Positions 5,134 to 11,999 of a DNA stretch of 11,999 nt are shown here, piece by piece. A program made the translations under genes and the position numbers. A model generated the notes under the pieces. That model saw only the letters and a list, made by a program, of their open reading frames with translations, was not told where the DNA came from and did not search any database. The stretch is taken from the IMG/VR virus record IMGVR_UViG_3300031867_001436. One strand, 5' to 3'. The stretch comes from a virus. The number at the start of each line of letters is the position of its first letter. The first letter of the stretch is position 1.

Positions 5134-8100
5134 ATGGCAAATGAAATTAGATATGGCGTCAAGTTTGACGTCGACAATAGTGGCTTATCTAGAATGAAAT
5201 CTGCCTTATAGTAGATTAGTACACTAAATAAATCTTTAAGCAATAGCGATGTTGCTAAAGCTATGGGTATTAGCGCAAAAGAAGCTACTTCATCTTTTAT
5301 AAAAATAAAAGAATAGATAATGAATGTTGAAAAGGCATTAAAATCTGCTTTTAATGCTAAATTAGATACTGTTAATATTGAAACTTTTAATAGAGTTTTA
5401 AAAGAATCAGGCAGCTCTATGGATCAAGTATATGCAGCTTTTAAAAATGCTGGTCCCGCTGGAATTGCTACATTTAATAGTATATCTTCTTCTGTATTAA
5501 ATACAAATATACAATTAAGATAGAGTCATACTTTATTAGATAAAATGGCTACTACTTTAGGTAATACTATTAAATGGAACGCGGCATCATCTGTTGTGAA
5601 TGGATTAACAAGATCTGTTGAACAAGCTTGGGGATATGTTAAAAATTTAGATAGTTCATTAAATGATATTAGAGTTGTTACTGGCAAGTCAGCCGATGAA
5701 ATGGCAAATTTTGCTAAACAAGCTAATGCCGCAGCACAAAGTTTAGGTAGAACTACAACTGATTATACAAAAGCTGCTTTAATTTATGCTCAACAAGGTT
5801 TAAGTGATGAATAGATTGCTAGAAGGTCTGAAATTACTTTAAAGACTGCTAATGTTACTGGACAATCTACTCAGGCGGTTTCTGAAGAATTGACTGCAGT
5901 ATGGAATGGTTATAAAGTTAATGCTGAAGAAGCTGAACTTTATGTTGATAGATTAGCTGCAGTTGCTGCAACAACGGCATCAGACCTTGAAGAATTATCA
6001 ACTGGTATGAGCAAAGTAGCCAGTGCGGCCGCCGCGATGGGCGTAGGATAGGATCAATTGGCGGCTCAGTTGTCTACTATTATTTCTGTTACTAGACAGG
6101 CTCCTGAATCAGTTGGTACTGCATTAAGAACTGTATATGCTCGTATTAGCGATATAAAAGCCGGTATTGATGAAGATGGGGTTACTCTTGGTAATTATTC
6201 TGGTAAGATGGCAGAACTAGGTTTTAATGTCCTTGATGCTGCTGGTAATCTTCGTGATATGGGCTAGGTCATGGAAGAAATCGGAGGAAGATGGCAAGAT
6301 CTTACTCGTGAACAACAAATTAACCTTGCTCAAACAATGGCAGGCCAAAGACAATATTCTAATTTAATTGCTTTATTTGATAATTTTGAATCATATAATA
6401 AAGCATTAGCTACTGCCCAAAATGCAGAAGGTACTTTAGCACAGCAACAAGATATTGCTATGGAAAGAACAACTGCACATTTAAATATATTAAAAGCATC
6501 TGTTGAAAATATTTATGATAGTTTAATTGATACTAAACCTATTAATAATTTAATAGATGGATTATCTGATGTAGCTAATAAAGTAGCAACTGTAATTGAT
6601 GGTTTTGGCGGTGGAATTCCTATTTTAAAAAGTCTTGGTGCTATTGGACTTTCTGTTTTTAGTACACAAATAGCAAGAGGAATTAATACCACAGTTATTA
6701 ATTTAGAGACTGCTAGAAATAATGCGTTACAATTTAGTCAGGCTCTTGAATCAACTAGGAATGTTTTAAAAATATAGGGGTTAGATGAAACTAGTAATAA
6801 ATTATTAAAAGCAAGGGAACAAATGCTCTAGCTTTCTAAAGTTATGACTCCTGAACAATTTTCTGGTATTCAAAATCTATTAAATGACTTAACAAAAGCA
6901 GAGAATGAGGTTTTAAAATTTAAAGGATAGATTAAAAATCTATCTGATGATTTACAAAAATTAGGAGTAAACTAGAATTTTAATGAAGTTGCTAATAATG
7001 ATGCTCTTAAAAATTCTATTGATGAAAAAATTTCAGCATATCAAGATTTAAACGAGAATATTGAAGCATATCAGTAGTTAGTTAGAGATATGCCTGAAGA
7101 AAAACTTGGTGAAAATGCTTCGATAAAAGCATTGATAGAAGATCTTAAAACTTTACAAGACTCTCAAATAATTACTAAAGAAAAATTTGAGTAGTTAAAA
7201 AAGGCTTTTGATGACGCAAATCAGGTTGGAGCGTCTCAAGATCAAGTTATAAATTTTTATGAAAAATTAGATGCTGCATTAGAAGAATTGAGACCAAAAC
7301 TAGATCCAGCTACTTTTGAAAAACTTTCTGCGGCATTACATGGAGATTTTTCGCAGGCTGCAGATGAAGCGACTGAAAAAGTACGAACATTATCAGAAAC
7401 TTTTTCAGATGCAATGGATCGAATGTTTAATGCTCAAAAATTAAAAACTTTTACTGATACGGTTGGAGCACTTGGTCGTATTGGTTCTGGAATTTCACAA
7501 CTTAAAAATTTAGGTGGAATTTGGAATAAAGAAGATGTCTCTATAGGGGATAAAATATTACAAACTTTAACAAGTATTGGTTTTGCTTTGCCGATGGTTG
7601 TTTCAGGAATAAAAAATCTTGGGGCAGCATTAAGTCTAACAGGAAAAGCTTTATCAGCTTTTAATGGTATTGCAATTGCTTTTACCGCTATCACTACTGT
7701 TATTGGTTTTGTAAATTCTGCCTTAAAATAGCATCAAGAAAATTTAAGAAAATAGAAAGAGTAGGCTATTGAAACTCAAAATAAATTACAATAGCAAATT
7801 GTTAAACAAGAATAGTTATGTAAATCCTTAGATGATTTAAATGAAAAAACTCAAAGTGGATAGTTAAGTAGAGCTGATTTAAGATCTGAAATAGATGAAT
7901 TAGTTAAATCTTATGATATTGAAGATGAACGAATTAAACAATTAAAAGGAACTTATGAAGAGACGACAAAAGCTATTCGTTAGATGCGTGAATAGGCCTT
8001 AACATCTAAAGAAGAGTCAACAGCAACTGAATTGGAAAATGCTCGTGGATTAGTTTGGAATAAAAATAAAAATGTTGGTGTTGGAACAGCAGAATGGCGA

Positions 8101-11100
8101 GATTATGATAATGGTAAATATAATTTAACATTATCTGAAAGTGCTCAATATGATGATCAAAATATTAGACAGACAATGATGTCTATATTAAAAAATAGTA
8201 GTCTTTATACTCAAATTGCTGGTGAAGAATTTGATCCTAACGCTGAAGATCCTTACGCCTCTTTTTCGCAAGTTGCTTTATCAACTGAAGATTCTGTAGA
8301 AGGTTTTATTAGTCTTTATGAAGAACTATTAAGAATACAAGAATAGGCTAGTAAACAATTAGGAGATAATGTTGAAAATTCTCAAGTATTTCAATTAATT
8401 ACTAATTGGTTAGATGGAATGTCTTAGGCTTATGATAAATATACTCAAGCCATAGAAGATCATAAAGCGGCAGTTGCTCAATTATAGGCATTTAATTTAT
8501 AGGATCAATTAAAAAATATTAAATCTTATAGTGATTATATAAAAGGTTGGCATCAATTAACACAACAGTTAATAAAAAGTGGCGATTATGAAAGTGGAGA
8601 ATAGGCTTCTCAAGCTGCTAGACAACTTTTATAGGATGCATATGGAGATGTTTATAAAAAATATTTCCTTATGCAAGATTTAATTAAACAATTTTATGAT
8701 TCTTCTCATGACATAATTACTGATTAGCAAAAAGCCATTTTAGAAGATATGTCTGTTGAACAGTTAGAAAATGCTTTATCGTTAAAGAATACTGCAATTA
8801 TAGGATCTTGGGAAGATTTTATAAAGATATTACAATAGACCGAAGAAGCTGCTGATGGAGTAGCGACTGCAACAGAAGAGGCAAAAAAAGCTGGCGAAAT
8901 TGTTCCTAAAGTTACTCCAGAATAGATGCGTCAACAAGCTATTGATCAATATAAAAATTATACTGCTGTTGAAGATAAAGTTAGAAAAGGTTAGAATATT
9001 TCAGATGAACAGTTCAGCTTATTAGACGCATAGGTTCAGCAAATGTTTGCAGATACCGCGGATGGTATGCATAAATTTATTGGTGATGCTGAAATATTCT
9101 ATGAAAAAATTAATAATTTAAAAGTTGATGGTTTTGAAAGTGCTATAAAATTTGTTCAAGACGAAATTGATAAATTATCTCAATATCAAAATCGTCAAAA
9201 ATTTGATTACCAAACTTTAAGTCAAGAAGCTTCAAGATCAGTAAAAGATACGAATGGTGTTGCTGTTAATTTAAATGAATTAATGGCTGCTCAACTTGAT
9301 TATATAAAAACTTTTGGTAATGCATCCACTCAACAAATGGGTATTTGGGAAAAGAATTTGGATGCATTAATGTCTGGTCAACTTTTTGGTCAACCATTGC
9401 AAGATTTTGCTACTTAGCTAGCTAGTACTGTTAGCAATATAGGAATAGTTGATGTTGAAGGACAATTAGCTACATTAAATCAACTTCTTCCTGGCTTATC
9501 TAGCCAGTTAGCAGATGCTAGTAAAGGTCCAAATGGATTATCCACAGATTAGATTAGACAAAATGCTGCAAATGAATATAATAAATATCAAAGTCTTATT
9601 GATGCTACTAAAAATGGTGGAACTATTTCAACATAGTTATTTAATAGTTTAGATGAAGGCATCCAAGGGTTCTTTGAAGTTGCTGGCGTTGGTATTTATA
9701 AATTAAAAGACAATGCATAGGGATTTGAATAGGCAGTTAATAAAATAAGTTTAGATTCTTTACGTAAAGGGATTGAAGAATTAGAAGCTGCAAAAGCTTC
9801 TGCCTAGAGTGATTTTAATAAAGGTAATTAGCTAAGAGATAGAGGTACTTATATTAATCAAGATACTTCTGCCGCAGATTTTGCTAAATATTCTAAGGAT
9901 TATGATCTTTTAAAGAAACAGGCTGATTTTATAAGTAAAATGAGTCCAGATGATGCTGATATTCAAAAACAAGTTGAAGGTTGGAAATAGATAATAGAAG
10001 CAGCGGAAAAAGCCGGCAGCGGAATTAAAAAGTCTATTTTAAATTAGATAATGTCTGGATTAGATACTGCCATTGGTCAAACTTCTGAATGGGGATCTGA
10101 ATAGTAGGCTAAATTAGCTACTATGAGATAGTAGTTAGCTGTCTTACAGTAGATGGGGGTTGAATTAGCAAAAAATCAAAATCTAACTGAGATGCAAACT
10201 AAGCGGGATTAGAGTGCAAATGAGTACCAAAATCTTTTAGATGCTTAGCAACAAGTCCAAGGTGGAGAGCCTATTACTAAATAGCAATATGATAGTCTTT
10301 CGTCACGAGCTAAAATGGCTTTTTCTATTAATGAAGATTTATCAAGTTATTCAGTTAGAGATGGAATGGAAGAAATAGTTATTTCTGAAATTCAAAAAAC
10401 TAAATAGAATATATATCAAGCCTTTATAGATTAGTATTCAAATTTAAGTCAAAATATTTAGGATTTATATAAAAATCAAAATTTTGATTATGATAAAACT
10501 TTAGAGAATCAAGGCACCGTTGTTGATGAAAATAATCAAACAACAATGGATGAAGAAAATATTCGTTTAAAAACTGAATATTTACAACTTCTTAATTAGG
10601 AAGGTCTATTAGTTGGTGAAAATAAATAGGATATGTCAGAGTTGCTAAAAAATGCAACAGACATGTTGGATAACCATCAGTTAGATAGCGATATTTTAAC
10701 ACAAATTAATCAAAAATATCAAGAAGCTGGAGATCAATCTAAAACTTTACTTTAGTTATAGAGATAGTATAATAAAAATGCTAGATAGGCAGCTAAAGCG
10801 CAATAGAAAATAAATGAAAATCAAGGAGAACCTCTTAAAATTGATTCTGATGTTAATGCAGATTAGTTAAAAAAATTAACAAAATATCTTATGAATTTCG
10901 CAAAAACTTCAAAAGATATAAATGATGATTTAGCTAAAAATGCGGAATTAGCAGAAGAATGTGCCCATGCTATTTTAAGATATGATAATGCAGTTAAGAC
11001 TGTTACAAAAAATTATGAAGACTGGATGGATCAATTAACGAACGGGAACATTCAAGAGCATTCTCGAACTTTATCAGAATTAGCAGAAGCTTATGCCGAT

Positions 11101-11999
11101 TTATTGAATATGAATGCTGAAGATTTTTCTCCAGATTTCTTATCAGAAGTGCATAATTTAGAGTTAATGAAATCTGCCATTGATGGTAATATAGATTCAT
11201 TAAATGAATTAAGATTAGCAGCTTTACAATCTATTAAATTAGATCTTGATGTATAGCCAGAGGCTTTTAATGAAATTTATGGGCTAATTGAAGATTTTAT
11301 TCTTAATACTGATTTTGACAATATAGAAGTAGGAGCATAGGTAGATGATACTGCATTGATTGCGGGATTAAATAATATGATTAGCTCAAGCCAAGTAACA
11401 CAAGCAACTATTAATAAAATTCTTAGTGCAATTGGTTGGAAAGGTAAATGGGAATCAACCCAACAAGAAATTGTGTTATCAGTTCCTCAGCCTGTAGTAG
11501 AAGATGCACCTCCTTTAGTGGGTTTTTCTTCTGGAGATTTAGGTGCAGGTGGACAGCATTATTCAGTTGGATTAAGACATATAGGAGTTCCAACTACTGT
11601 AGAGACGCCTGTATTAACAGGATTCGTATATAACGGTCCAACGGGTGGAACTCGTCCTTCTTCCGGCGGAAGCTCTGGTGGTGGAGGAGGCCGCGGAGGC
11701 GGCGGTGGTAAAAAAGGTGGCGGAGGCGGAAAAGGAAAGAAAGGCGGAAGCGGCTCTAAAAAAGATAAAGAAGATAAAAAAGATTAGAAGTAGAAGAAAG
11801 AAAAGCGTGAAGATTAGGTTGATATTTATCATGATGTAAATAAAGAACTTAATAATATAGAACGTGCTTTAGGACGCCTTCAAAAGAAACAAGATAAATT
11901 ATGGGGTAAACAATTACTTGATAATTTAAATAAGCAATCCGCATTACTTGAGCAACATAAACAAAAGCTTCAAGAAAAACTTGCCTTACAACAAAAAGA
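5134..11999 (+). CDS. Tail tape measure protein (TMP), 5' partial: more than 2288 codons, continuing past the window end, readable only with about 65 in-frame TAG codons translated as sense
   Basis: An AAGGAG Shine-Dalgarno lies 11 nt upstream of the ATG at 5134, which follows an in-frame TAA at 5116-5118. The TMP conserved domain lies at about 5550-6400 (...TKAALIYAQQGLSDE[TAG]IARRSEITLKTANVTGQSTQAVSEELTAVW...LSTGMSKVASAAAAMGVG[TAG]DQLAAQLSTIISVTRQAPESVGTALRTVYARISD...LDAAGNLRDMG[TAG]VMEEIGGRWQDLTREQQINLAQTMAGQRQYSNLIALF). Hydrophobic helical segments, long coiled coils and a Gly-rich segment are all typical of TMPs. All ORF-track fragments (5320.., 5545.., 6058.., 6271.., 7288.., 8032.., 9043.., 10891.., 11356..) share one frame (coordinate mod 3 = 1). 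They are separated only by TAG, never by TAA or TGA. Confidence 0.85.
11635..11815 (+). repeat. Low-complexity Gly-rich then Lys/Glu-rich segment inside the TMP
   Basis: GGTRPSSGGSSGGGGGRGGGGGKKGGGGGKGKKGGSGSKKDKEDKKD[TAG]K[TAG]KKEKRED. The GGN/AAR codon repeats make a local GC island and generate spurious ORFs in other frames on both strands. Confidence 0.6.

Follow-up and report, generated by a model that had tools for sequence, protein, structure and literature searches.

Phages that read the amber codon TAG as a sense codon (genetic code 15) are known among the crAss-like and Lak phages and from the human-gut phage phAss-1. The authors of the phAss-1 study assign TAG to glutamine (Gln) (PMC10607447), and in a preprint by Borges et al. 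the only reassignments seen in phages with a code unlike that of their host are TAG to Gln and TGA to tryptophan. The locus described here is a window of 11,999 nucleotides (nt) from IMG/VR record IMGVR_UViG_3300031867_001436 (hereafter, the query; related loci carry the label L and a number), which contains most of a giant tape measure gene interrupted by TAG codons. It resembles the code-15 phages in belonging to a lytic phage with a host that presumably uses the standard code, and in carrying TAG codons in late, structural genes while the early genes are free of them. It differs from them in that TAG aligns with glutamate (Glu) and replaces Glu codons rather than Gln codons. TAG in the late block is a sense codon that, in the query lineage, most likely specifies Glu and not Gln. 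Since TAG recoding in phage late genes is already known from crAss-like phages, Lak phages and phAss-1, the new part would be the Glu meaning.

No report of amber-to-Glu reassignment in phages was found in the literature searched, the coverage of which is incomplete, and UAG read as Glu turned up for ciliates only. The ciliate nuclear codes concerned, those of peritrichs (code 30), of Oligohymenophorea sp. PL0344 (PMC10553269) and of phyllopharyngeans (PMC11687900), have the assignment of UAG to Glu in common with the query. They are, however, whole-genome codes of eukaryotes, whereas here a single gene block of a bacterial virus is involved, the host of which presumably keeps TAG as a stop.

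Of the described phages, phAss-1 (OQ749652; PMC10607447) is similar in its giant tape measure protein of 3,149 amino acids (aa), with approximately 30% identity in the N-terminal domain, and in its genome of approximately 136 kb. It differs in gene order and in having 36 tRNAs, including three with the anticodon CUA, against none found in approximately 75 kb of the query relatives. Membership in Phassvirus is not indicated, as no megablast hit was returned and only three of the early proteins tested match phAss-1, at 28–35% identity; moreover, no tRNA array lies beside the AAA_33 and phosphoesterase genes in relatives of the query class. The query is a distant relative of phAss-1 within a wider group, not a member of Phassvirus.

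The features of the tape measure locus are as follows.

5116–5121, plus strand: AAGGAG ribosome-binding site (Shine-Dalgarno), 12 nt before the ATG at 5134
5134–11999, plus strand: tape measure gene, third gene of the late block; the 5' 71% (2,288 of about 3,230 codons), leaving the window at its end
5209–11817, plus strand: span of the 65 in-frame TAGs, from the one at 5209 to the one at 11815, on average 34 codons apart and probably read as Glu
5644–6621, plus strand: TP901-type tape measure domain (TIGR01760, aa 171–496), with TAGs at 5812, 6049 and 6265 inside
5728–6345, plus strand: PF10145 part of the domain (aa 199–404)

The frame in which the coordinate modulo 3 equals 1 is open from 5107, directly after a TAA at 5104–5106, to the end of the window. 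An earlier sequence-only reading of this DNA had described a frame of more than 6.8 kb with about 65 TAG codons and neither TAA nor TGA, and the count bears this out: from the ATG at 5134 there are exactly 65 TAG, 0 TAA and 0 TGA in 2,288 codons. The per-frame comparison that it had called for gives 115 and 284 TAA and TGA codons in the two alternative frames of that DNA, against none here. Base composition predicts approximately 98 TAA and 51 TGA (approximately 149 in all), so that zero would arise by chance with a probability of about e^-149, and a frame closed by TAG alone cannot be chance. TAG makes up approximately 2.8% of codons in the late block. The gene is seen complete in L281, a metagenome contig with a product 94.8% identical to that of the query, where it comprises 3,234 codons with 81 TAGs.

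The TAG positions are conserved. In comparison with L281 (95% identity), TAG is present in both sequences at 58 of 62 comparable sites, and 35 of 37 are kept as TAG in L355 at 77% identity; TAG is accordingly a conserved sense codon in the query lineage. Homologues align residues rather than gaps opposite the TAG sites, including TAG-free homologues of 2,800–3,000 aa. Read with the standard code, the region would be six open reading frames (ORFs) of 117–179 aa, and public gene callers do split the relatives into short ORFs. A string of short genes or a decayed pseudogene in which TAG still acts as a stop would, however, have to have held one frame over 6.9 kb without TAA, TGA or a frameshift, with a single Pfam domain crossing three TAGs. 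The match of TAG sites to residues, together with their retention in relatives of 77–95% identity, excludes the split-gene and pseudogene readings for practical purposes, the latter already disfavoured in the sequence-only reading, and we give them next to no credence.

Across the family, tape measure genes contain 0, 1–5 or 40–95 TAGs within a single unbroken frame of 2,800–3,100 codons. Five relatives (L001, L002, L004, L005 and L030) have just 3–5 in-frame TAGs in a tape measure gene that is otherwise intact at 2,900–3,040 codons, and could represent early or residual stages of recoding. Use of TAG follows the gene blocks: it is found in the late block and not in the early one, with no in-frame TAG in the minus-strand genes of the window and none among 9,049 codons from the early genes of relatives. 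Among 71 early ORFs of at least 150 aa from relatives of the class to which the query belongs (L111, L177, L178, L180, L202, L210, L218, L363, L369, L376 and L378), 56 end in TAA, 9 in TGA and 6 in TAG, and it may be that TAG still terminates early genes while being sense in late ones.

The identity of the gene is apparent once TAG is read through. The match to PF10145 has an E-value of 1.8e-27 and 96.9 bits versus a cutoff of 33.2, covers profile positions 2–201 of 201, and runs through the TAGs at 5812, 6049 and 6265; that to TIGR01760 has an E-value of 3.1e-35 and 121.8 bits versus a cutoff of 28.8. Several PHROG tape measure families also match, the best at 2.6e-48. The giant tape measure gene proposed in the sequence-only reading is thus recovered by the profile searches that it had suggested, and the predicted product is one giant TP901-type tape measure protein. 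Of the three TAGs that it had placed in the domain, those at 6049 and 6265 are correctly positioned, and the one in the motif GLSDE*IARR (asterisk, amber) lies at 5812 and not at 5815. No matches came back for the divergent C-terminal 1,571 aa in a protein search, probably because coiled-coil words swamped the candidate list. In relatives, large late genes resembling tail fibre genes follow the tape measure gene.

The product resembles tape measure proteins of the TP901-1 family (TIGR01760 / PF10145) in its N-terminal domain, with scores exceeding the curated cutoffs, in its great length and richness in coiled coils, and in the place of its gene at the head of the tail genes. It differs in its length of approximately 3,230 aa, about three times the usual, and in the approximately 80 amber codons of its gene. 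Tape measure proteins set the tail length at approximately 1.5 Å per residue, and 3,234 aa would correspond to a tail near 480 nm.

Which amino acid TAG specifies was approached by an alignment-free test of composition, based on the amino-acid codon shares of the tape measure genes. The sequence-only reading had favoured code 15, in which TAG would be read as Gln by a Gln-type suppressor tRNA. Tape measure genes of standard-code relatives contain 8.87 ± 0.89% Glu and 6.51 ± 0.49% Gln. In some of the recoded relatives (L042, L043, L052, L054–56, L060, L066, L069 and L084; hereafter, the Gln class), Gln sense codons are halved, to 3.1–3.8%, and the sum of Gln and TAG is back at 5.2–6.5%, which is the pattern of TAG read as Gln. 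A larger recoded set that includes the query (hereafter, the Glu class) keeps Gln at 5.1–6.9% and has a lowered Glu share (mean 7.55%), so that it is the Glu sense codons that are depleted and not those of Gln. The query itself has 6.0% Gln, 6.9% Glu and 2.8% TAG. Adding TAG to Gln gives 8.9%, outside the standard-code range, whereas adding it to Glu gives 9.8%, inside that range. Undepleted Gln codons speak against code 15, and Glu alone balances the composition, which also bears against a mixed Glu/Gln decoding.

A second line of evidence comes from profile alignment. Opposite the three TAGs in the domain, the 24 database homologues nearest to the query have Glu, with Asp in a single one, and not Gln; the residue check that the sequence-only reading had proposed did not yield the Gln of code 15. 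As a Q in the database may be a TAG translated by convention, this first view of the homologues is ambiguous, and the later work was carried out at the codon level on fetched DNA. A test modelled on Codetta was set up with a hidden Markov model (HMM) of 21 tape measure proteins written in the standard code; in the recoded proteins aligned to it, TAG was masked and log emission probabilities were summed over sites with a posterior of at least 0.8. For the query (14 sites), Glu scored best, followed by Lys (-9.8), Asp (-11.4) and Gln (-12.2 natural-log units), and in the sister phages L014, L017 and L019 (35–47 sites) Glu leads Gln by 29 to 46 units. The masked control codons (CAA, CAG, GAA, GAG, AAA, AAG, GAT, AAT, ACA, TCA and GCA) received the right amino acid in every case with more than two sites to score. 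The same test gave Gln for TAG in L043, L052, L055, L060 and L084, and hence distinguishes Glu from Gln within this protein family. In L019 the per-site score of Glu over Gln at TAG (approximately +0.98) equals that of genuine GAA and GAG codons (+0.94 and +0.77), which speaks against a mixed decoding.

Counts of distinct alignment columns point the same way. Only columns conserved in the standard-code sequences were used, and sequences were typed by composition only; these counts replaced pairwise tallies pooled over references, the likelihoods of which are inflated by relatedness. In the Glu class, TAG occurs in 39 of 47 Glu columns versus 10 of 36 Gln columns (p=4e-7), and the Gln class is the reverse, with 9 of 47 versus 29 of 36 (p=3e-8). 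For the query and L281 together, the figures are 8 of 46 Glu columns versus 0 of 36 Gln columns (p=0.008). The plurality residue opposite the 39 aligned TAGs of the query is Glu at 14, Lys at 6, Ala at 5, Asp at 3 and Gln at 2, a profile like that of its own Glu-codon control (Gln 6%) and unlike that of its Gln codons (Gln 37%). Codon-level tallies from metagenome relatives at individual sites of the query are E22/Q2 at site 130, E11/D2 at site 227, E59/Q4 at site 306, E50/T7/D4/S3 at site 378, and E4, S2, K1 and A1 at site 566. Lys is not the best residue opposite TAG, and pyrrolysine was rejected on this ground and because the lysins of relatives indicate a Gram-positive bacterial host rather than a methanogen.

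The second late gene studied, a large gene downstream of the tape measure gene, contributes 503 TAGs in 144 columns, for which Glu is again best, with Lys at -143. Taken singly, each phage of the Glu class gives Glu, including L281 and L360, the closest relatives of the query, and the Gln class gives Gln or Lys. This second gene also favours Glu over Gln. Lastly, differences between the query and L281 comprise five exchanges of TAG with GAA, two with CAA or CAG and one with AAA, against no exchange between Glu and Gln among approximately 280 sense-codon sites. Were TAG to mean Gln, five two-step, non-synonymous changes between GAA and TAG would be needed alongside no one-step change between GAA and CAA, a combination that is difficult to account for.

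In favour of code 15 stand the precedent of the Borges et al. survey, where Gln is the sole amber meaning reported for such phages, the Gln assignment and three tRNA(CUA) genes of phAss-1 as a distant relative, the few exchanges of TAG with CAA or CAG among close relatives, and the TAG at 4986 in a neighbouring 63-codon gene, which stands opposite Gln in one lineage. Considering the composition, the columns and the HMM scores, we regard the Gln assignment as distinctly improbable for the query. The five lines of evidence (composition, the Codetta-like test, distinct columns, domain-site tallies and the second late gene) agree on Glu, and as judged from these comparisons TAG behaves as evolutionarily equivalent to Glu.

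Several observations weigh against a simple Glu assignment. The query alone offers few sites, namely 14 for the HMM test, and 3 columns conserved as Glu versus 0 conserved as Gln (Fisher p=0.24). TAG is exchanged with Gln codons between close relatives and occupies 10 of the 36 Gln columns class-wide; mixed signals are seen in L003, L021 and L079; and the lineage with Gln opposite the TAG at 4986 is one of the low-TAG lineages, with Glu, Ala or TAG in others. No tRNA was detected by ARAGORN or Rfam in Glu-class relatives over approximately 75 kb per genome, about half of each genome. Pure Glu, a Glu/Gln mixture and a Glu-like modified residue, moreover, cannot be told apart in alignments. Ambiguous decoding of this kind could result from a suppressor partly amidated by GatCAB, from two suppressors, or from a Glu-like non-standard residue. 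It would account for close relatives swapping TAG with both GAA and CAA or CAG above the rate at which Glu and Gln sense codons are exchanged, for the class-wide occurrence of TAG in Gln columns and in 16 of 64 Asp columns, and for the mixed signals, and phAss-1 does have three dissimilar CUA tRNAs. Given the composition balance and the per-site scores of L019 described above, we consider such a mixture unlikely, and Glu remains the preferred assignment.

The phage family holds three classes: standard-code members, members in which TAG is Gln, and the Glu class that includes the query. Clustering of the N-terminal domain by the unweighted pair group method with arithmetic mean (UPGMA) places the query in a cluster made up of 37 sequences from the Glu class and 8 low-TAG ones. 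Gln-class phages form clusters of their own in the midst of standard-code phages, and a few members of the Glu class (L026, L036, L039 and L064) lie outside the query cluster. The case is probably one of natural amber-to-Glu reassignment in a bacterial virus, in a family that also has standard-code and amber-to-Gln members. Close lineages would then differ in what the codon means, whether by a later change or by a different initial assignment, and a minor alteration in how GatCAB recognises a suppressor tRNA may lie behind it.

The pipelines and papers that we found treat phage amber recoding as TAG to Gln with translation table 15. If the Glu assignment is true, approximately 2–3% of the late-protein residues of this clade would be wrong in databases, an uncharged amide standing where a negative charge belongs. 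Stop reassignment in phages would then not be bound to the side reactions of glutaminyl-tRNA synthetase (GlnRS) and tryptophanyl-tRNA synthetase (TrpRS) proposed so far, and natural Glu-inserting amber suppressors would exist, with a possible use in genetic-code engineering. With standard-code, Gln and Glu members side by side, the family is naturally suited to the study of how the meaning of a codon is set and switched.

A mechanism can be proposed in which release factor 1 would be outcompeted by an amber-suppressor tRNA(CUA) that carries Glu and becomes available only after infection is under way; both the tRNA and its charging are putative. Late genes laden with TAG would then be translatable only at the late stage, so that their translation would be gated in time, as has been proposed for code-15 phages. 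The sequence-only reading had suggested a search for a tRNA(CUA) gene, and ARAGORN found no tRNA, and hence no tRNA(CUA), in the window; nor was a suppressor tRNA found in 84 tape measure loci. The search in Glu-class relatives covered the minus-strand block from the lysis genes to the DNA polymerase III (Pol III) alpha gene and 29 kb from the start of the tape measure gene, the former anchored on AAA_33 kinase, DNA ligase, primase and Pol III alpha in related IMG/VR contigs and the latter taken from the 77%-identical relative. Rfam returned nothing on 136 kb, and phAss-1 NrdD, which adjoins two of the CUA tRNAs of that phage, brought back only near-identical relatives of phAss-1 when used as an anchor.

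The lysin domains of relatives (CW_7, glucosaminidase, Amidase_2, GH25 and SH3_3) suggest Gram-positive hosts. In hosts without GlnRS, which include most Bacillota, a non-discriminating glutamyl-tRNA synthetase charges tRNAGln with Glu, and GatCAB then amidates the product. A CUA suppressor without the identity elements for GatCAB (a U1-A72 pair and features of the D-loop) would remain Glu-tRNA. Small changes in the tRNA could on this hypothesis flip a lineage between TAG as Glu and TAG as Gln, which fits the presence of both classes in one phage family. The three CUA tRNAs of phAss-1 (OQ749652; loci L085–L087; 62442–62610 and 105744–105820) are dissimilar: one is 91 nt long, its variable region enlarged by a long insertion, one is like the anticodon arm of the phage's own tRNA-Trp, and one has a U1-A72 pair. 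Decoding of TAG in phAss-1 may involve more than one tRNA identity.

The window as a whole is a divergent junction in the genome of a large tailed phage. Related contigs of 130–144 kb have a layout in common with it, and the wider group of relatives includes phAss-1 as a distant member; no match was found when the whole window was compared with GenBank phages by megablast. The sign of the GC skew flips near 4.4–4.6 kb. The remaining features are listed below.

3–4396, minus strand: early/middle gene block, compatible with the standard code, 0 in-frame TAG, all complete genes ending in TAA
3–533, minus strand: RNA ligase fragment
520–726, 745–966 and 1094–1300, minus strand: three small genes
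1392–3884, minus strand: major-vault-protein-like gene, 830 aa
3971–4396, minus strand: HD-phosphohydrolase-like gene
4397–4614: AT-rich divergent intergenic region between the TAG-free minus block and the TAG-using plus block
4615–4896, plus strand: first gene of the plus-strand (late) block, 93 aa, conserved, without TAG, ending in TAA
4911–5102, plus strand: late gene of 63 codons, conserved, next before the tape measure gene; a single in-frame TAG at 4986–4988, ending in TAA

The 93-aa gene is also found in L001–L004. Homologues of the 63-codon gene are present in 26 related loci, with two TAGs in the close relatives L281 and L322; as this gene contains an in-frame TAG, in-frame use of TAG begins upstream of 5134. 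Two of the TAA codons that the sequence-only reading had taken as gene ends, at 4894 and 5100, do close these two genes, and the third, near 5115, is intergenic.

On the early side of the junction, the phage gene at 1392–3884 encodes an 830-aa homologue of the major vault protein of eukaryotes. The protein matches the Pfam family MVP_shoulder at 3.1e-23 and the major vault protein chains 2qzv, 4hl8 and 7pkz of the PDB at approximately 4e-10 over aa 479–775, which comprise the shoulder and cap-helix, and the gene is kept at approximately 830 aa in L006, L012, L014, L018, L026 and L039. Its Gln codons are 26 CAG and 1 CAA despite a GC content of 0.22 at third codon positions (relatives 26:2, 27:1 and 25:2). 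An early gene of 329 aa (L177 15021–16010; L210 4659–5645) has CAG:CAA ratios of 7:0 and 8:0; for comparison, the ratio is 19:119 in the tape measure gene and 96:197 in the summed early genes.

A set of tRNA-repair-like genes adjoins the lysis genes (3–533 on the minus strand of the window; 1–6300 in L001 and L002). It consists of an RNA ligase (PF21189/PF09414, TIGR02306), an AAA_33 kinase and metallophosphoesterases, to which L001 and L002 add a Thg1-like protein. Phages further removed carry large tRNA arrays beside this kinase, which is not so in the query clade. The small gene at 1094–1300 on the minus strand encodes a 68-aa protein with a weak match to the T7 gp5.9-type RecBCD inhibitor (Pfam 0.0012, below cutoff; PHROG 6234 at 1.9e-6).

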